Assembly: GCA_945870655.1 (NCBI GenBank)
Contig: CAMBSX010000003.1
Coordinates: forward strand, 1 to 45,958
Direction of reading: 5' to 3'
DNA from: Chthoniobacter flavus
GTDB lineage: Bacteria > Verrucomicrobiota > Verrucomicrobiia > Chthoniobacterales > JACTMZ01
Length of the DNA: 45,958 nucleotides
Part shown: positions 11,259-19,524 of the stretch, piece by piece
How positions within the stretch are numbered: position 1 is the stretch's first letter
How the letters are laid out: each line of letters begins with the position of its first letter
The notes under the pieces: model-generated
The model's input: only the letters and a program-made list of their open reading frames with translations
The model's database searches: none
Told to the model about the DNA's origin: nothing
Made by a program: the position numbers and the translations under genes

Positions 11259-12202
11259 CTCGCCTCGCGCTGCCTGCGGCTTTCGCGAGGGAGACAGCGC
11301 GGCTCGCGGGCGAGGCCAATCTCTACCTCGGCACCTCGTCGTGGAAATACGAGGGCTGGATCGGGCAAGTCTACGACGCGCAGCGCTACCTCACGCGCGG
11401 CAAACTCTCCACCCGCCGATTCGAGAGCGAGTGCCTTGAAGAATACGCCGACACCTTTCCGACTGTCTGCGTCGATGCCGGCTACTACCGTTTTCCCTCC
11501 GATAAATTCCTCGCGGGGCTTTGCGCGCAAGTTCCCGACCATTTCCGGCTGAGTTACAAAGTGACCGACGAAATCACGGTGAAAAAATTTCCCAAGCTCG
11601 AGCGCTTCGGCGACCGCGCCGGAACGGACAACACGCACTTCCTCGACGCCAAACTTTTCGTCGACGCCTTCCTCGGACCGCTCTCACCCCACCGCCGGAA
11701 AACCGGCGTGCTCATCTTCGAGTTCTCCACGTTTTATCCCACGCACTTCGAGCGCCTGCGCGACTTCATCGCCGTGCTGGATGATTTTCTCGGACAACTC
11801 CCCACCGACTGGCAATACGGCGTCGAGGTGCGCAACGCCAAGCTGCTCCGCGCGGAATACTTCGACGTCCTTCGTACCCACAATGTCACCCACGTCTTCA
11901 ACAGCTGGACCAAAATGCCGCCGGTCGAGGAACAGATGGTCCTGCCCGGGGCCTTCACCGCCGATTTCTACGCCGCCCGCTTTCTCCTCCGCCCCGGCCG
12001 CGCCTACCAGCAAGCCGTCGATAGCTTCCAGCCCTACCGCGAGACCAAAGACGCCAGCCCCGAAGCCCGCACCGCGATCAAAAGTCTCATCCAGCGCAGC
12101 AAGACATCGCCCACCCGGCGCCCCAGCTACCTCTTCGTCAACAACCGCCTCGAAGGAAACTCCCCCAACACCCTCGCCGCCGCGCTCGACTTGGTAAGCT
12201 GA
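11192..12202 (+). CDS. DUF72 (YecE) family protein
   Basis: LYLGTSSWKYEGWIG, LEEYADTFPTVCVDAGYYRFP, YGVEVRN, YLFVNN. The start is uncertain because of the repeat tract. Confidence 0.88.
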   Translation: MEVEGKEKLSPSDLSTLNPQPPTRLALPAAFARETARLAGEANLYLGTSSWKYEGWIGQVYDAQRYLTRGKLSTRRFESECLEEYADTFPTVCVDAGYYRFPSDKFLAGLCAQVPDHFRLSYKVTDEITVKKFPKLERFGDRAGTDNTHFLDAKLFVDAFLGPLSPHRRKTGVLIFEFSTFYPTHFERLRDFIAVLDDFLGQLPTDWQYGVEVRNAKLLRAEYFDVLRTHNVTHVFNSWTKMPPVEEQMVLPGAFTADFYAARFLLRPGRAYQQAVDSFQPYRETKDASPEARTAIKSLIQRSKTSPTRRPSYLFVNNRLEGNSPNTLAAALDLVS

Positions 12203-12301
12203 GTTTGTGCCGGTGTCAGCCGGCGTAAGCTATCCTCTTCAATCTTCCTCGACTTGACCGCTTCGCTCAGCTCTTCGAGCTGTCTCTCTCGTTGCGCTCG
12301 G

Positions 12302-13150
12302 CTATGGCTTGTCTTTTTCTTTGGCCATCAGGAAACGCAACGCCACCGGCAAGCGCTTGGCCCAGGCCTTTTCGTTGTGCTCGTCGCCCTCGCCCGGATT
12401 CCACAGCAAATCCTCCCCCTCCACATACCCCTGTTCCAATAAAGCCCCACGCACCGCCAACACATCCTCCCAGTAATCCCCCGAGAGATTCCCTCGCTCC
12501 TTCGTCCCCATATCCAGGTAAATCCGCAACCCGTCCTTCTTGGCCCCCTCCATCACCGCCTTGGTAAAATTCGGACTCGTCCAGAATGCCGGCGAGAAAA
12601 CCCCCACCGCCCCGAACGCCTCCGTATTCAGTCCGAGCCAAAGCGAAACCACCCCGCCCATCGACGCGCCCGCCACGGCAGTGTTTTCGCGGTCCGGCAA
12701 GGTCCGGTATTTCGCATCGATGCCCGACTTGACTTTCCCGACCAAGAAATTCGCATAGCGATTGCAAACGCCATCCCCTCGCCGGGGATCTCGTGGATTG
12801 GAGTCGGCCGGCGGTTGGTATTCGGTCATGCGCGCCTTGCCCATGTCCGCCTCATTATTCGGAACGGCCACCAAGATGGCCTCCCCCATCCGCCCAGCCT
12901 TGATTTCCGCTAATGCCGCATCCTCGGCAAACCAGCATCCGAACGGCCCACCCGGACGGAACACATTCTGCCCGTCATGGAAATAGAGCACCGGATACCT
13001 CTCGTCCCCCGTGTTATAGTCCGGCGGCAGCCACACGCGCACCTCCCGCGAAGGAATCAGAGGGTCGTCCGACTCGATGAATACCGTTTCCATCCGCCCG
13101 CCCGCCCAGGCATTCACAACCAAGAAAAGCAACATCTGAAGCACCACCAT
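12302..13150 (-). CDS. Alpha/beta hydrolase, putative esterase (IroE/Fes-like), probably exported
   Basis: VWLPPDY...YPVLYFHDGQNVF, GASMGG nucleophile elbow, YLDMGTKE, HNEKAW. The start is approximate and precedes a hydrophobic leader. Confidence 0.85.
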   Translation of the reverse strand: MVVLQMLLFLVVNAWAGGRMETVFIESDDPLIPSREVRVWLPPDYNTGDERYPVLYFHDGQNVFRPGGPFGCWFAEDAALAEIKAGRMGEAILVAVPNNEADMGKARMTEYQPPADSNPRDPRRGDGVCNRYANFLVGKVKSGIDAKYRTLPDRENTAVAGASMGGVVSLWLGLNTEAFGAVGVFSPAFWTSPNFTKAVMEGAKKDGLRIYLDMGTKERGNLSGDYWEDVLAVRGALLEQGYVEGEDLLWNPGEGDEHNEKAWAKRLPVALRFLMAKEKDKP

Positions 13151-13376
13151 CACCGGCCAGAGCCGTTTCCTAAGCCCCTCCCAAAGCTTCCCCGCCGCAG
13201 AGCCCGCTGGCCTCTCCAAGCCGTATGGCTCCACGAGCAAGAGGCCAGCGGGCCGTGGCAAAAGTCTGACTCGAAAACTCAATTCCTCTCTCTGCCCTCC
13301 CCATCACCTCCGGTCAATCCGGATCGCACGCAAAAGCAGAAAGTCTGCCGCGGTTCACCGCGCCTCACGACCCACC

Positions 13377-14705
13377 TCAATGCGGGCCGAGGCGTTCCAC
13401 CATCCAGCGCAAGCCGCCGAGTCCCGGCAGGAAAAGGTGCTCCCCCCCGCGGGTCTGCGAGAAAGCAGCCAGCCCCTTGTAACGGTGTCGCGGACGCGGG
13501 ACCGCGAATTCGTCAGAGCGGTCACGGCGCCCGGCAATCGGGTCGGATCGCTCACCTTGGGAAATGAAGTCCCCATCGTTGATCCATTGCGACTGCACAA
13601 ACTCAAACTGACGACCCGGGTTGGCGTTGATGATGGCGAGGACAAGCCCCCGATCAACCCCATCGTCCTCGGTCACGCCCTCGGGGAGCACAGGACCATA
13701 GGCCGAGCCACGGCGGAGAAGCCGGTGCAGACGCATGTCGACCACGGTTCCATCAAGTGCATCGCGCGGGTTGACGCGGCGGATGTGGCAACCGGGCGCC
13801 GTACGGTCGCCATCCGGATCCTCAGTACGGAAACTAAAGTCGTTGTTTCTCATCGGATCCTTGGCAATTTCCGGGTCATCTTTTTCCGGTGAGAGCGCCA
13901 TAGGACATCCGCTCCGCCACCGCCCCATCATTTGCGCCGCAACCAATTCCCGACCGTCGGAGGTTTCCGCATTGTCACGGAGAAAGCGGCGGAAAGCCGC
14001 GACGTCCTGATGGATCTTGCGCAAGGAAATGTAGGTGCTGTTCCGCCAAAAATCTTCCGGTCCTGGCCCCGAAGCAATCACTCCGAGTTCGTTTTCATAG
14101 CCGAGCACGAACTCTCCGGCTTTGGCCACCGGTTGCCCCGGCAACGGGTCGCCTCCCTGACCCTCGATGTATGGACGGGAAATGCCGTCGACAAAACCAA
14201 AGTGCTCGCGGCCGGTCGGCGGCAAGCCGACATCAAGCCGGTTGACTGTACGCACCCCCCCCAAGCCGGCCACCGCCTCGCGACCGATGGCGGCCTTTGC
14301 GTCGCGCAACTCCGGCGAGCCCGCCATGATGAGCAAGCCGATGTCCAGCCCGTTGCCTCCATGCGGCATGTCCCAGTGCGACGGGTCGTTGAGGCCGACA
14401 TCACCGAGGAATTCCTTACGCGCCGCCATACCTTGGATGAATTCGCGCGGGAACCCGTCCAGGATTTCGCGAGGCAGGCCAAGCTTGCGGAGGCCTTCCC
14501 AGGAAAAAGTTGCGTTGATCCACGCATTCTCGGGCGGCGCATCCCAGTTAGCCGCGGGAGTTATGTGCGGAAGCAGGCGCTTGATCAGTGTGATGGCGTT
14601 TCCTGCATCGTCGATCGTGAAAACATAGTACGTGCCGAAATACGGCATCGGCCTCGAACGGAGGACGGTGCCCTGGATATCTTCCAGCTCAAGTTCAACC
14701 GCCAT
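13377..14705 (-). CDS. Dye-decolorizing (DyP-type) heme peroxidase
   Basis: DIQG, EHFGFVDGISRP (GxxDG), GEFVLGY, GRWRSG, HIRRVNPRD (proximal His), LLRRGSAYG, QFEFVQSQW. Confidence 0.92.
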   Translation of the reverse strand: MAVELELEDIQGTVLRSRPMPYFGTYYVFTIDDAGNAITLIKRLLPHITPAANWDAPPENAWINATFSWEGLRKLGLPREILDGFPREFIQGMAARKEFLGDVGLNDPSHWDMPHGGNGLDIGLLIMAGSPELRDAKAAIGREAVAGLGGVRTVNRLDVGLPPTGREHFGFVDGISRPYIEGQGGDPLPGQPVAKAGEFVLGYENELGVIASGPGPEDFWRNSTYISLRKIHQDVAAFRRFLRDNAETSDGRELVAAQMMGRWRSGCPMALSPEKDDPEIAKDPMRNNDFSFRTEDPDGDRTAPGCHIRRVNPRDALDGTVVDMRLHRLLRRGSAYGPVLPEGVTEDDGVDRGLVLAIINANPGRQFEFVQSQWINDGDFISQGERSDPIAGRRDRSDEFAVPRPRHRYKGLAAFSQTRGGEHLFLPGLGGLRWMVERLGPH

Positions 14706-14721
14706 GGCAGTTGCTCCGGCG

Positions 14722-15237
14722 TCAGTTGGCCGCGTCGAGCATCTCGTTGACCGCCTCGGAGAGGCGCCGCATCTTGGCGATGTCCTTGATCGTCAGGTCA
14801 GGGTTGGCCGCATAGAAGGCATCCGCCGTGTAAGCCTGCCGCTCGATAAGCTTGGCTGTCGCCGGGTCTGCCGCACAGGTGAATCCCTCCCAAACCCCGG
14901 GCATGAGCAGATCAAACCACGGGCCGGCCTGGGTCACGACGTCTTGCAGATAGGGCACAAAATCCCCGTCGTAGACGGCAGAAACAAGAATGCGCGTGTC
15001 GTTGTCGAAGAGGATGACGCGGAAGTCATGGACCGTGCCAATCCGCTTCTCCCAATAGCCGGCTTCGGCTTGGAAACGGGCGATGCGGTCGCGGAAAAGT
15101 TTGCCGCCTCCCGGCACCACGTTGCCGATGACATGGATCTCGCCGCGCTTGCCGATCCGCTTGCCCGGACCGTCGGGCTGGTTGGAGGAGGGCTGGGTTA
15201 GCGCTGCTTTTTCCGGGGAGATATCAAGGTTGCTCAT
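14722..15237 (-). CDS. Conserved hypothetical protein of a type found beside DyP peroxidases
   Basis: Globular 171 aa protein with IGTVHDFRVILFDNDTRILVSAVYDGDF; 16 bp upstream of the DyP start. Confidence 0.75.
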   Translation of the reverse strand: MSNLDISPEKAALTQPSSNQPDGPGKRIGKRGEIHVIGNVVPGGGKLFRDRIARFQAEAGYWEKRIGTVHDFRVILFDNDTRILVSAVYDGDFVPYLQDVVTQAGPWFDLLMPGVWEGFTCAADPATAKLIERQAYTADAFYAANPDLTIKDIAKMRRLSEAVNEMLDAAN

Positions 15238-15270
15238 AAGTTGTGGTTGTGGTGGTTGGGTTTTCCGGCT

Positions 15271-15648
15271 TCAGGCCGAAGGAAAGGGCTTCGTGGCGAT
15301 AAACTCGCGCTGCTCGCAGATGCGGCCATCGCGCCAGGTGCAAACCACACCGAGCAGTGCGCTGAGCTTTTCGCCGGCGAGCGATATTCCAGTGGTCAGC
15401 GCGACCGAGCAGGTGCGCGTTCCCGCGGCATCAGAAAAAAGCTGCAGGTAGGGATCGATATGGATGAGATTGTCCGGATACTCGCGACAAAAGGCCTGCC
15501 CCCGCCGGAGGTGCTCCTCAAGATCGTGCGGTGCGGTATCCGCATCCATCCACCCACGGAAGTCGGGCGCGAAATGCGCCCTGTAGTCATCCCAACGGCG
15601 CTCGTTCCAAGCTACGTCCACCGCGCGCATTTTGTCGGCTAGGCTCAT
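15271..15648 (-). CDS. SnoaL-like / NTF2-fold protein
   Basis: AWNERRWDDYRAHFAPD...YPDN...WRDGRICEQREF. Its ATG overlaps the stop of the catalase gene (ATGA). Confidence 0.8.
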   Translation of the reverse strand: MSLADKMRAVDVAWNERRWDDYRAHFAPDFRGWMDADTAPHDLEEHLRRGQAFCREYPDNLIHIDPYLQLFSDAAGTRTCSVALTTGISLAGEKLSALLGVVCTWRDGRICEQREFIATKPFPSA

Positions 15649-16613
15649 TGCCCGGCGCCGGCGATGGCGGCAAAAGGACAGGATTTCCATCCCCCGGTTC
15701 TTTGCGCGGCGGAGACTTCGTAAATACCCCGCCGGATCTGCAGGATCGGATCGTCAGTGGCCTCGATGCCGTCGGTCAGAACAGTCGGATCGTGGTTCAT
15801 CACAAGGTCGCCGATTTCCGCTTCGGTGGTCGGCGCCACCACGCGCAGGCGGCCAACCGTCTCCCGCCGACGGCCTTCGGGCCACAGGGCGGTTGCGTCG
15901 TTGATCGGGTCTCCCGGTTCGGCAAACTCGAGGACAAGGTCCCACTCGACCGGACCTTGCGCCACTTGGGCTTCAAGATCATTGAAGAGAACCTCAGCGT
16001 CTTCGGCTGACAGTTCTTTGACCTCCCTAAATCGGACGCCGGCCACCGGTTCCCAGTGGCAGCGCACCACGGTCTCCGTCCCATCCTCGGCAATCCACCG
16101 GAAGGCATGCACGGCATGGAAGGCGCACCAAGGAAAGCCCGCGGGCGCGGGGGTCTGGGAACGCATCTGCAAGACGGCCGCCGTGTTCGGGTTCCGGGCA
16201 ACAAAGGCCATCAACCCTTCCTTGTTCATTGGCCCGCCGGGCGCGAGGGGCAACGCGGCTTCGAGAATGCCGTGCAATTGCTCCAAGGAATTCACCACGA
16301 AAAGCAGTTGGCTGAGCATGACCAGATTCGTTACCCGGCCATTGGGAAGGTAAAAGCGGACCGCCATGCCGACCGTGTTCCCGAAATGGGCAAAAGGGTC
16401 GCCACCGCCCTTGGAGACACGCACGGTAACGGGAACCTCGTCGCCCTGCAGATGGACAGCCCGGGTATATTTTCGGGCGTTCTCGTTGGCCCGGAAGAAA
16501 CCGCGGAACATCCGTCCATCGGCATGAAGGGCGCGGTAACCTTGGAAGTTACCCAGGACAGCGCGGATGTTTTGGACCAGCTCCTCTGCGTCATCGTATT
16601 GGCTGGCGTGCAT
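15645..16613 (-). CDS. Catalase-related heme protein (small SrpA-like catalase/peroxidase)
   Basis: GYRALHADG (distal His), VTVRVSKGGG, GMAVRFYLP, FHAVHAF, DATALWP, DGIEATDDPILQIRRGIYEVS (Arg and proximal Tyr). Confidence 0.88.
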   Translation of the reverse strand: MHASQYDDAEELVQNIRAVLGNFQGYRALHADGRMFRGFFRANENARKYTRAVHLQGDEVPVTVRVSKGGGDPFAHFGNTVGMAVRFYLPNGRVTNLVMLSQLLFVVNSLEQLHGILEAALPLAPGGPMNKEGLMAFVARNPNTAAVLQMRSQTPAPAGFPWCAFHAVHAFRWIAEDGTETVVRCHWEPVAGVRFREVKELSAEDAEVLFNDLEAQVAQGPVEWDLVLEFAEPGDPINDATALWPEGRRRETVGRLRVVAPTTEAEIGDLVMNHDPTVLTDGIEATDDPILQIRRGIYEVSAAQRTGGWKSCPFAAIAGAGQ

Positions 16614-16836
16614 GATGTAGAGCGACCGAAACGGCATGATATGGGACGCGCTCGCACAAGCAAGAGAAGAAACGTCTCATGCCACTCCCAAATCCTCTTG
16701 GCAAAACCTAATCCCGGTCACTGCCTTGCCCGGTGCGCCTTCGAATTTGCTCTCGCTTTGGTCCGACGCCTCCGAAGCGAATTCAGTCGCCGCGTTCGGC
16801 GGATTCCACGATCAAACCCCCGAGCCAAAACCCCGA

Positions 16837-17010
16837 CCGACCAAGCGCGAAGCGGAAATCCTCCGCTGGGCGGCCGAAGGCAACGCCGAGATCGCGACCA
16901 GCCTTGCTTTGAGAGCCCATACGGTCCGCAACCGTCTGGAGAATATCCTCGTCAAATTTAAGGTGGAAACACGGACCGCCGCGGCTGCGGCACTGCACCC
17001 ACCGGAATAA
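16837..17010 (+). pseudogene. Decayed LuxR/NarL-type helix-turn-helix
   Basis: PTKREAEILRWAAEG-NAEIATSLALRAHTVRNRLENILVKFKVETRTAAA. It lacks two residues of the usual G-x-[ST]-N turn and has no recognisable sensor domain. Confidence 0.65.
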
Positions 17011-17041
17011 ATTCCGAGCCGACCGCAAAAAGCAGCCGGGG

Positions 17042-17536
17042 TCAGGCCCGCGCCGGAGCAGCCAGAGCAATCTCCGTTGCCACGAAGGACTTGAAGTCGG
17101 CCTCGTAAAGTGTGTCGGAAGCAATCCGCTCCCACGCCTGGCGGAACGCCGGTTTGGCCAGCGCATCATGCATTCCGAGACGCCACAGATTCCACATGCC
17201 CTCGTCGAAATAACCGCGGCGGTGTAGATACCACTCCTCCAGACACATGCCGAAATACGTCCGCATCACACGCATGATCGCACCCGCATCGTCGCGTCCT
17301 TCCAGGCAAAAGGCCGGATCATGGACCTCTTCCGGCAACCGCTCCATCACCTCGAGGAAGCGACGCGAATGGTCCCCGAAATGCTCGACCGCCAACTGCA
17401 CGCGCAACACGCCCAACTGCCTCCACAGCGCATAGCCTGCGACAAGAACGCTGAGGATCGTGGCCAGACTTCCGCCCACACCCAGCCAATCAGTAACAGT
17501 CATAAGTTGAAGAATAGAGACAAACTCACGCGCCAT
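17042..17536 (-). CDS. Hypothetical protein with N-terminal TM helix and helical domain (DUF4760-like)
   Basis: TM segment WLGVGGSLATILSVLVAGYALW, then YFGMCLEEWYLHRRGYFDEGMWNLW. Start at 17503 or 17536. Confidence 0.6.
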   Translation of the reverse strand: MAREFVSILQLMTVTDWLGVGGSLATILSVLVAGYALWRQLGVLRVQLAVEHFGDHSRRFLEVMERLPEEVHDPAFCLEGRDDAGAIMRVMRTYFGMCLEEWYLHRRGYFDEGMWNLWRLGMHDALAKPAFRQAWERIASDTLYEADFKSFVATEIALAAPARA

Positions 17537-17671
17537 GCCTACGCGAGAAAGGGCCATCTTCCAAGCCTCGCGGTCGGGACGAGTCGGCCCTCAGGTCCGG
17601 ACTCTCAAGCGAAGGACGGCTGCAACGCAAAAGATTGACCTCTTCGGTCTCTCCGCGTGCCATCACTCCTC

Positions 17672-18541
17672 ATGAACCCGTGGATCCTCGCCGCCCGACC
17701 GCGCACCTTGGGTGCCGCGATCATCCCCGTGCTTGCCGGAGGCGCTTTGGCCATTTCGGTCAGCGCGTTTGATCCGTTGGTTTCCGCGCTCATCCTCGCC
17801 TGCGCCGTCCTCATCCAGATCGCGACCAACTTTTTCAATGACGCGATCGACCACGTCAAAGGCGCCGACACCCCCGGGCGACTCGGCCCGATCCGCGTCA
17901 CCTCGACCGGACTCCTCCCCGCGCGTCAGGTCATGACCGGCGCGGTTCTCACCATAGCGCTCGCCGCCCTCCTCGCCACCCCTCTTGTTCTCCGCGGCGG
18001 CGGGATCATTCTTCTTATCGGCATCCTCTCGCTGTTCTTCGCCTATGCTTACACCGGCGGCCCTTTTCCCTTGGCCTACCTCGGACTCGGCGAAATTTTC
18101 GTCATCCTCTTCTTCGGCCTCATTGCCGTGGCCGGCACTTTTTATCTCAACACCCTCGCCTTCTCCGTGGCCGCAGTTTTGGCTGGATTGCAAATCGGAC
18201 TGCACTCGAGCGTGCTGCTCGCGGTCAATAATCTCCGCGACCTCGAGACCGACCGCGCAGCGAACAAGAAAACTCTGGCTGCCCGGTTCGGGCTCACTTT
18301 TGCCCGCCGCGAAAACGCCGCGCTGATCATCACCCCTTTCGTACTCGGCCTCGCGTGGCTTCCGCTCGGTTATCTTTGGGCCTTCCTCCTCCCGCTTCTT
18401 ACCCTACCCCTGGCCTGGTGGCTGGCCTGCGCCTGCCTCAAGGCTGCGCCCGCGCGCGAAACCAACCAACTTCTTGCCCAAGCCGCCGCATTGCACGCCG
18501 CGTTCGGACTCCTCCTTGCTCTCGCTTTCCTCCTGCCGTGA
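17672..18541 (+). CDS. menA: 1,4-dihydroxy-2-naphthoate polyprenyltransferase
   Basis: WILAARPRTL, QIATNFFNDAID...GAD...RLGP, YTGGPFPLAYLGLGE, NNLRDLETDRAANKKTLA. Confidence 0.95.
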   Translation: MNPWILAARPRTLGAAIIPVLAGGALAISVSAFDPLVSALILACAVLIQIATNFFNDAIDHVKGADTPGRLGPIRVTSTGLLPARQVMTGAVLTIALAALLATPLVLRGGGIILLIGILSLFFAYAYTGGPFPLAYLGLGEIFVILFFGLIAVAGTFYLNTLAFSVAAVLAGLQIGLHSSVLLAVNNLRDLETDRAANKKTLAARFGLTFARRENAALIITPFVLGLAWLPLGYLWAFLLPLLTLPLAWWLACACLKAAPARETNQLLAQAAALHAAFGLLLALAFLLP

Positions 18542-19524
18542 AAATCTGGACGCATCATTACACGCTGCAGCCCGGATCCGCTCCGGCGCGCGCCGCGCGT
18601 GGTCCGCGTCACGGCATACTTCTCCGCGTCGAGTTCAACGGTGGAACAATCGGCTACGCCGACCTGCATCCTTGGGAGGAATTCGGGCACGCGCCATTGA
18701 CCAATCATCTTGCCTCACTGGGCACGGACCAACCGACACTCTTGGCCAACCTTGCCCTGCGCCACGCCCGAACCGATGCCGCGGCCCGCCGCGCGGGAGT
18801 CTCACTATTCGACGGGCTGCCCGAGGTCCGCAGCCACGCGCTCTTCACCGATTGGTGCGAGGCCCCGCGCTCCGTTTTCGAACCATGCAGTGCCGAAGGT
18901 TACACCGCCGCGAAAGTAAAGATCGGCCGGAATGTGCAGCGCGAAGCCGCGGCGCTCAACCGGTTTTCCGACCTCCCGCTCCGCTGGCGCCTCGATGCCA
19001 ATGCCAGTTTCACGACCGGCCGCGGCGAACCATTGACAACTTTCCTCTCCCAACTCGCCCCCGATCTCCGCCGGAAGATCGAATTCTTCGAAGATCCGAC
19101 ACCCTACGAGACCGCCGCGTGGGCCGCCCTGTCCGAATGCGAAAAAATCCCCCTCGCGCTCGACTGGGAATTACCCTCAACGCCACCGCCCTGGACCGGC
19201 GCGCAAATTGTCGTGATCAAACCGGCCTCGCAGGACGCCTTCCCGCTCGCCCTCGCCGCCAGCCAGGCAGGGATGGAAATGGTCGTCACGCACAGCATGG
19301 ACCATCCTCTCGGCCAAGCCGTCGCCCTCTGGACCGCCATGCGACTGCGCCAGCGCCACGGCGACCTCGTCCGCGACGGCGGCCTCCAAGCCACCGGCCT
19401 TTACCAGCCGGACGAATTCAGCACCCAAATCAAAACGAAAGGACCAGCCACCACGCCCCCCCCCGGCACCGGCTTCGGATTCGACAACCTGCTGGCGCGG
19501 CTTCCCTGGCAAGCACTCCGATGA
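18538..19524 (+). CDS. menC: o-succinylbenzoate synthase (enolase superfamily)
   Basis: GTG start overlaps the menA stop. GYADLHPW, KVKIG (KxK), RLDAN, FFEDP, LALD and IKP catalytic pattern, plus menA context. Confidence 0.8.
   Translation: MKIWTHHYTLQPGSAPARAARGPRHGILLRVEFNGGTIGYADLHPWEEFGHAPLTNHLASLGTDQPTLLANLALRHARTDAAARRAGVSLFDGLPEVRSHALFTDWCEAPRSVFEPCSAEGYTAAKVKIGRNVQREAAALNRFSDLPLRWRLDANASFTTGRGEPLTTFLSQLAPDLRRKIEFFEDPTPYETAAWAALSECEKIPLALDWELPSTPPPWTGAQIVVIKPASQDAFPLALAASQAGMEMVVTHSMDHPLGQAVALWTAMRLRQRHGDLVRDGGLQATGLYQPDEFSTQIKTKGPATTPPPGTGFGFDNLLARLPWQALR

Follow-up and report, generated by a model that had tools for sequence, protein, structure and literature searches.

A class C/V DyP and a predicted barrel-fold protein form the fixed core of a heme-enzyme module with an exchangeable third gene

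Which genes of a compact heme-enzyme operon belong together, and do they act on a specific organic compound or simply remove H2O2? This question is raised by a 45,958-nucleotide stretch of Chthoniobacter flavus DNA (contig CAMBSX010000003.1 of assembly GCA_945870655.1; hereafter the window), in which a catalase-like protein, a SnoaL protein, a small protein of no named family and a DyP peroxidase are encoded in succession. The original prediction, made from the window alone, described four co-oriented genes with one short overlap and two short gaps, and the coordinates of the open reading frames (ORFs) bear this layout out:

16613-15645, minus strand: catalase-like gene, 322 aa
15648-15271, minus strand: SnoaL gene, 125 aa
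15237-14722, minus strand: gene of the formerly "unknown" protein, here called the barrel protein, 171 aa
14705-13377, minus strand: DyP gene, 442 aa

The ATG of the SnoaL gene overlaps the TGA of the catalase-like gene by 4 nt, and the gaps are 33 bp between the SnoaL and barrel genes and 16 bp between the barrel and DyP genes.

A census of related loci places the last two genes at the centre of the module. Close relatives of the barrel protein served as anchors for 38 genome loci, which are not independent (one is from a near-identical congener and seven are from close-kin Streptomyces); a DyP gene is present in 35, the three misses being loci cut by contig ends. The catalase-like, barrel and DyP genes occur together at 32 of the 38 loci, and the exact four-gene order is found at 12. 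Because this trio and this order recur in five or more phyla, among them Pseudomonadota, Bacteroidota, Actinomycetota, Acidobacteriota and Planctomycetota, the grouping is not due to chance. Plasmids show the same association: 34 records of a plasmid collection contain a barrel homologue, and all 16 loci examined also carry a DyP, with the catalase type of the window at two and a second type, that of Deinococcus radiodurans DR_A0146, at 11. In the same collection, all three homologues of the catalase-like protein at 45% identity or above adjoin a barrel gene; at control loci of the SrpA type, a barrel or DyP gene is found at 0/4.

The association also holds when approached from the DyP. Ten loci were picked out of 82 records because they had no initial barrel match or were distant, and a broader hidden Markov model (HMM) detects a barrel domain at nine of them. 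In an even sample of 301 Actinomycetota and 301 Alphaproteobacteria genomes, the barrel family occurs in 11 of each (centres included), or about 3% of the genomes sampled, and of the 24 loci widened from this sample (two seed loci excluded; two of the 24 from one centre genome), 23 have a DyP, while the single miss lies at a contig end. The fixed core of the module is a class C/V DyP together with the barrel protein, and the four genes are not a fixed unit. The expectation that all four families would co-occur across genomes thus stands for the DyP, barrel and catalase-like proteins and falls for SnoaL (13/38 genome loci, 0/24 evenly sampled loci), while the pair that the original prediction had treated as secondary, the DyP and the unknown protein, is in fact the invariant part.

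The barrel protein has no match in Pfam or NCBIfam, sequence searches of the PDB return nothing significant, and the Atlas yields only unnamed clusters. Its AlphaFold2 (AF2) model (predicted local distance difference test score, pLDDT, of 83) matches mutarotases, ABM monooxygenases and polyketide cyclases with Z scores of 8.0 to 7.1, the best being a middling Z of 8.0 for a predicted model, with a root-mean-square deviation of 3.2 over 101 residues. The dimeric alpha+beta-barrel superfamily dominates the top 50 rows of fold matches, and the protein is predicted to be an ABM-like dimeric alpha+beta barrel with a ferredoxin-like beta-alpha-beta-beta-alpha-(alpha)-beta order. Tandem two-domain forms exist, which fits a barrel that forms dimers. 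In a diverse set of 46 members, Tyr96 never varies and Glu33, His70, Arg73, Asp90 and Asp99 are almost invariant, and the family is marked by the motifs TxHxxR and DGxWDxYxxDF. At E<=1e-3, the family comprises 1016 representative proteins (50% identity). When compared profile to profile, the barrel family and the DyP alignment show no similarity (probability 0.1). A predicted complex of DyP, barrel protein and heme scored 0.02, and since the controls did not fold, it is not used as evidence.

The other half of the core is a class C/V DyP with intact heme motifs, for which peroxidase activity is predicted from the sequence. Although its DyP_N and TIGR01413 profile matches both fall below their cut-offs, its best sequence match in the PDB is 8RE3/8RE2 (E 1e-120), and its closest solved relative is DrDyP (DR_A0145) of D. 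radiodurans. Asp173 of the GXXDG motif (GFVDG, G170-G174), the proximal His307 and R331/R332 of the distal Arg region are invariant in 66/66 homologues. DrDyP is reported to be a class C/V enzyme that is active only at acid pH and inactive at neutral pH; the authors of that study express doubt about its substrate, raise the possibility of partner proteins and describe what bacterial class C/V DyPs naturally act on as an open question (PMC10820274).

The catalase-like protein matches PF00199 above the cut-off (E 1e-20) and PDB entry 3E4W in sequence (E 1e-47, 34% identity), and its AF2 model (pLDDT 92) aligns with 3E4Y in Foldseek at a template modelling (TM) score of 0.86. We take these two entries to be MAP2744c, a 33-kDa catalase-related protein that reportedly has peroxidase activity. 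With conservation judged in sets of 55 and 120 homologues, the distal His30 is retained in 119/120 (one gap), and Ser67 on the distal side and Arg294/Tyr298 on the proximal side are conserved in the 120. The protein thus shares the catalase core fold, distal His and proximal Arg/Tyr of the MAP2744c/SrpA type, and it is not a typical monofunctional catalase, as it consists of a 322-aa core only, lacking the N-terminal arm, the C-terminal domain and the distal His-Asn pair. At the catalase distal-Asn position, as set by alignment with catalases and by catalase numbering, Leu100 is found in 120/120 homologues; we considered this Leu as a mark of the subfamily and rejected it, because Synechococcus SrpA also carries Leu there.

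SrpA is of an exported type, with an N-terminal signal or anchor and often a cytochrome b neighbour, and the window protein does not appear to be of this type. In 106/120 homologues, the distal His is found 29-30 residues after the start, whereas the three full-length SrpA-type controls have hydrophobic N-terminal extensions, and no cytochrome b is present among the recurrent neighbours of the module loci. Judging from their sequences, all four proteins look cytoplasmic, in agreement with the original prediction of a cytoplasmic pathway without obvious signal peptides. The window gene is also the only PF00199 match in its genome. We nevertheless rejected the module as a stand-in for a missing catalase, because full KatG is encoded in both module-carrying genomes of the genus.

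Next to the core is a third slot whose occupant varies among a MAP2744c-type protein, a DR_A0146-type catalase relative (about 22% identical to the window type over 302 aa at best) and a cytochrome P450. In the even sample, the next gene is a catalase relative at 6/24 loci and a P450 at 9/24, while the other nine have an unnamed 337-aa protein (three), a DUF4331 protein (one) or a gene to which we assign no family (five); a catalase relative and an adjacent P450 are together at 0/24. Among the 12 partner P450s counted (L207, read in the wrong frame, is excluded), the HxC thiolate is kept in all 12, ten are without the I-helix acid of the acid-alcohol pair, and seven have Pro-Thr. A P450 that lacks this acid and keeps the thiolate fits a peroxide-using rather than an O2-activating enzyme, and the heme enzyme families that often fill the slot are known to turn over peroxides without a reductase. 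In two catalase-fold relatives (L195 2337-3734 and L205 6912-8123), the distal His motif is replaced by GNTKT, and a GMC oxidoreductase gene lies upstream of the one in L205.

The same domains are also found fused, as globin-barrel-barrel-DyP, barrel-DyP-P450(-like), P450-barrel-barrel-DyP and DyP-P450. One such protein, in P0227, has 1280 aa and joins a class V DyP to a bacterial globin and two barrel domains, and in the P450-DyP fusion of L150, two barrel domains lie between the P450 and the DyP. The unnamed third-slot protein of about 337 aa stands beside the barrel and DyP genes in Actinomycetota and Nostoc; it has no Pfam match and has His-rich motifs, and is encoded at the following loci:

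L143 2950-3963; L146 6350-7390; L136, L144, L196, L198 and L199

A further cluster has the arrangement DyP-NIPSNAP-DUF4331-TPR-barrel (L128, L028, L065, L083 and about 45 other loci), often with a 5-aminolevulinate synthase gene (hemA), cytochrome c and a molybdenum oxidoreductase, and may offer a handle on DUF4331. At L049 (1-1900; metagenome), which resembles the locus L006 of a Synechococcus metagenome-assembled genome (MAG), the DyP is split off onto the opposite strand and, by inspection, adjoins a putative methyltransferase and a putative flavin oxidoreductase.

SnoaL is the least constant member of the operon. The SnoaL_2/SnoaL Pfam matches of the window protein (E ~1e-5) lie just below their cut-offs, while its homologue in L062 reaches E 4e-15; the window protein has an Atlas value of 0.95 and the NTF2 fold, and His46, Cys54, Tyr67 and Trp105 are invariant in 28/28 operon homologues. 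On a DyP tree used only to assess the patchiness of SnoaL (FastTree, 92 rows, with near-duplicates and short or frameshifted DyPs excluded), its presence requires seven changes, so the gene is gained or lost freely. SnoaL is an optional accessory, and the operon of four genes is a locally elaborated version of the module. The weight that the original prediction gave to the coupling of catalase and SnoaL is therefore not sustained, as SnoaL is sporadic and the catalase-like gene replaceable.

What, then, does the module do? Its recurrent neighbours include short-chain dehydrogenases/reductases (SDRs), Zn-dependent alcohol dehydrogenases (Zn-ADH), 3-hydroxyacyl-CoA dehydrogenase, acyl-CoA dehydrogenase, thioesterases and UbiD/UbiX, along with HlyD/ABC-2 exporters and regulators of the TetR, MarR and LuxR types. 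By annotation, these neighbours fit an organic substrate. At three metagenome loci (L053, L062 and L085), UbiX/UbiD genes separate the barrel gene from the DyP, and two of these loci also have a Zn-dependent dehydrogenase upstream. The module likely serves to oxidise a specific organic compound, not just to remove H2O2. The preference of the original prediction for such a substrate over generic H2O2 defence is accordingly supported, being the better fit to the neighbours and the swappable partners in a host that already has KatG.

For the chemistry, we propose tentatively, and with somewhat less than even confidence, that the DyP and the barrel protein jointly produce an organic hydroperoxide as the substrate of the catalase-like enzyme or P450. 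In this scheme, the DyP would generate a substrate or protein radical, O2 would add at the barrel protein (with its invariant Tyr96 and with His70 and Arg73), and the resulting hydroperoxide would be handed over to the peroxide-using heme enzyme; the catalase-like enzyme would cleave, rearrange or reduce it, and SnoaL, where present, probably finishes the product. Judging from the neighbours, the substrate would be a fatty-acyl or aromatic lipophile in the cytoplasm. We infer such a pathway because the slot is refilled by peroxide-using heme families, because the exchange is either-or as in Nostoc and fungi, and because a joint reaction has been raised as one possibility for P450-DyP fusions (see below). 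The proposal draws further support from the inactivity of DrDyP alone at neutral pH, from KatG in both carriers and from DR_A0146, which is encoded next to DR_A0145 in D. radiodurans and is reported to lack catalase activity (PMC6300522).

A number of observations weigh against this hydroperoxide scheme. We know of no DyP or ABM protein that forms such hydroperoxides, and no lipoxygenase (LOX) or cyclooxygenase (COX)-like dioxygenase, fused or adjacent, is found among the recurrent neighbours of 118 loci (singletons are partly annotated). The fold match of the barrel model is middling, and folds of this kind include mutarotases, isomerases and heme-degrading proteins. The Asn-to-Leu change in the catalase-like protein is not diagnostic, 2/6 catalase relatives of the even sample (L195 and L205) lack the distal His, 2/12 partner P450s keep the canonical Asp-Thr, and both a catalase relative and a P450 are missing from nine of the 24 loci in the even sample. 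A common, large soil clade has the NIPSNAP-DUF4331 arrangement instead, the neighbours indicate no single substrate consistently, and a Granulicella locus adjoins Fur and katG. Finally, DR_A0145 and DR_A0146 are both raised under UVC/vacuum stress (PMC5731708), which fits oxidative defence.

The last two observations lead to the reading in which the module is a generic cytoplasmic peroxide defence, with the small proteins giving structural help to two heme peroxidases that remove H2O2 or lipid peroxides. The intact distal His/Ser and proximal Arg/Tyr of the catalase-like protein and its standing as the sole PF00199 match in the genome speak for it as well. However, KatG is already present in both carriers, the reported lack of catalase activity in DR_A0146 and the inactivity of DrDyP at neutral pH do not suit a role in H2O2 removal, and neither the substitution by P450s nor the metabolic neighbours are explained, so that we consider this reading rather improbable. 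Somewhat less improbable, though still unlikely in our judgement, is a cassette that neutralises an aromatic or lipophilic toxin, in which the DyP and the catalase-like protein or P450 would work in parallel as H2O2-driven peroxidases or peroxygenases while the barrel protein and SnoaL isomerise or capture the products, with no channelled hydroperoxide. The UbiX/UbiD genes inside the operon at three metagenome loci, the frequent exporters and TetR/MarR regulators, the patchy and plasmid-borne distribution and the oxidation of aromatics by DyPs (PMC9719856) all suit this picture, as does the GMC oxidoreductase upstream in L205, a possible source of H2O2. Such a source is nonetheless seen at only 1/24 loci, and the cassette explains neither the near-obligate barrel protein and its fusions to the DyP nor why a catalase relative and a P450 are not found sharing the slot.

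A third possibility applies to just the barrel protein and could hold alongside the other readings: this protein may be a heme chaperone, an activator or a heme-degrading subunit, with His70/Tyr96 as ligands, in a module for heme loading or disposal. The fold superfamily includes IsdG and MhuD, the neighbours or fusions include 5-aminolevulinate synthase, cytochrome c and globin, and DrDyP needs something to become active (PMC10820274). We regard this as quite doubtful, since IsdG/MhuD stand low in the list of fold matches (Z 5.7) and no iron-uptake genes are seen among the recurrent module neighbours.

Returning to the hydroperoxide scheme, its broadest form would cast bacterial class C/V DyPs as one component of a two-part oxygenase, the other being an obligate ABM-barrel protein with an invariant Tyr; the specific organic hydroperoxide would be turned into oxylipin-like or detoxified products by interchangeable heme enzymes. 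We think it fairly unlikely that the scheme extends this far; if it did, it would represent a further, independently evolved dioxygenase/hydroperoxide-isomerase architecture and would explain the poor activity of such DyPs when purified alone. The module itself points to a natural role for a class of peroxidases without a known job, and it gives a concrete handle on class C/V DyPs in the form of a partner protein from a large family without a Pfam entry, which is hardly ever separated from the DyP, alongside a second heme slot that three or more families have come to fill. If such a partner activated DyPs or redirected their activity, this would be relevant to biocatalysis as well. As D. radiodurans, a tractable organism, carries the trio and has a solved DyP structure, the idea can be tested at once.

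In its genome, the operon belongs to an inserted island, as revealed by comparison with congeners:

13125..17620 (approximate): inserted island of ~4.5 kb, between an esterase gene and menA
16636..17010, plus strand: remnant of a LuxR-family regulator (PF00196), from comparison with the congener G002 (L004)
17042..17557, minus strand: 171-aa ORF of no family, inside the island

The two flanks of the island are <=250 bp apart in at least 11/30 congeners, and to the right of the island (17657-19524) lie a menA-like prenyltransferase gene and, by inspection, a putative menC-like gene. Only 2/31 genomes of the genus carry the module and 0/30 other genomes of the order do, many of these genomes being incomplete MAGs; a weak barrel match in genome G026 (E 1e-3, internal stops) was disregarded. 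The nearest related locus is that of a congener MAG, at 97-99% amino-acid identity. In G+C content and in G+C content at third codon positions (GC3), the island genes differ little from the flanks. The module is mobile, moving horizontally, and it is patchy and plasmid-borne. The divergent LuxR regulator is part of the island and dedicated to the module. It is whole in G002 (L004 3624-4559), whereas ~450 bp of its N-terminal part are missing at ~16787 in the window, and because of this loss the operon may be mis-regulated or silent in the window genome. A promoter scan found no sigma-70-like sites, and terminator-like sites number nine against 5.5 +/- 2.6 by chance. The 17042..17557 ORF is not recurrent among the neighbours of module loci in other taxa. 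Repeats at window positions ~12200-12320 and ~13190-13255 have many copies in congener genomes (BLAST matches of 85-115 bp and ~65 bp) and may represent dispersed repeats or else small mobile elements; of these short repeats, one is located at the left edge of the island.

When compared to known systems, the closest counterpart is the D. radiodurans locus, where the record shows in a row a TetR gene, a 3-hydroxyacyl-CoA dehydrogenase, a barrel homologue (31% identity), the DyP and a catalase-family gene. The DyP is about 45% identical to that of the window, and a barrel homologue and a catalase relative are likewise present. Unlike the window, however, this locus has no SnoaL, DrDyP has GXXDM in place of GXXDG, and DR_A0146 belongs to another catalase subfamily with no significant BLAST match to the window protein. 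The available parts of the D. radiodurans papers make no mention of the barrel gene or of a shared pathway. MAP2744c/SrpA-type proteins share the small catalase core (TM 0.86, 34% identity), whereas the window protein has its own motifs (HADG, RxSKGGG, MLSQ and RRGxYE) and no signal extension, and two of the three annotated SrpA-type control loci have a cytochrome b neighbour.

The either-or use of a catalase-related protein or a P450 is shared with pairs of a dioxygenase and a hydroperoxide-converting enzyme: in Nostoc, a 10S-dioxygenase is paired with a catalase-related hydroperoxide lyase that is a separate protein, and in fungi, dioxygenases act together with P450s to which they are fused (PMC13049297), the known pairs being those of Nostoc, the fungal dioxygenase-P450 fusions (DOX-CYP) and the coral allene oxide synthase-lipoxygenase fusion (cAOS-LOX). 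In the module, by contrast, the first enzyme is a DyP with an ABM-fold protein, not a LOX/COX-like enzyme, and where cAOS has Thr66/His67/Asn137, the catalase-like protein has Leu-His and a Leu at the Asn site. P450-DyP fusions are known as DyP subclass V4, for which Yoshida and Sugano raise a joint reaction like that of DOX-P450 as one possibility and describe the middle part, in the text available, only as transmembrane regions (PMC9719856). These fusions resemble the module in that a single chain contains both a P450 and a DyP of class V, while the split operons, the catalase-related substitutes and the barrel domains are not noted in that account. The barrel protein, for its part, has the same predicted fold as ABM and other dimeric barrels (ActVA-Orf6, SnoaB, LsrG, RhaU/FucU-type mutarotases and IsdG/MhuD) but differs from them in having no sequence match to solved chains and in its distinct TxHxxR and DGxWDxYxxDF motifs.

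In the literature searched, which includes the available text of PMC4420034 and leaves subscription papers and supplements outside its range, we found nothing that describes the barrel partner, the near-obligate tie between it and class V DyPs, or the exchange of catalase and P450. The original prediction that no operon of this composition had been described thus stands for the module as a whole, with the qualification that the adjacency of DR_A0145 and DR_A0146 is already in print (PMC6300522). What is already known is the family of each enzyme and the adjacency of DyP and catalase genes; what appears to be new is the DyP-barrel core with its swappable partner.

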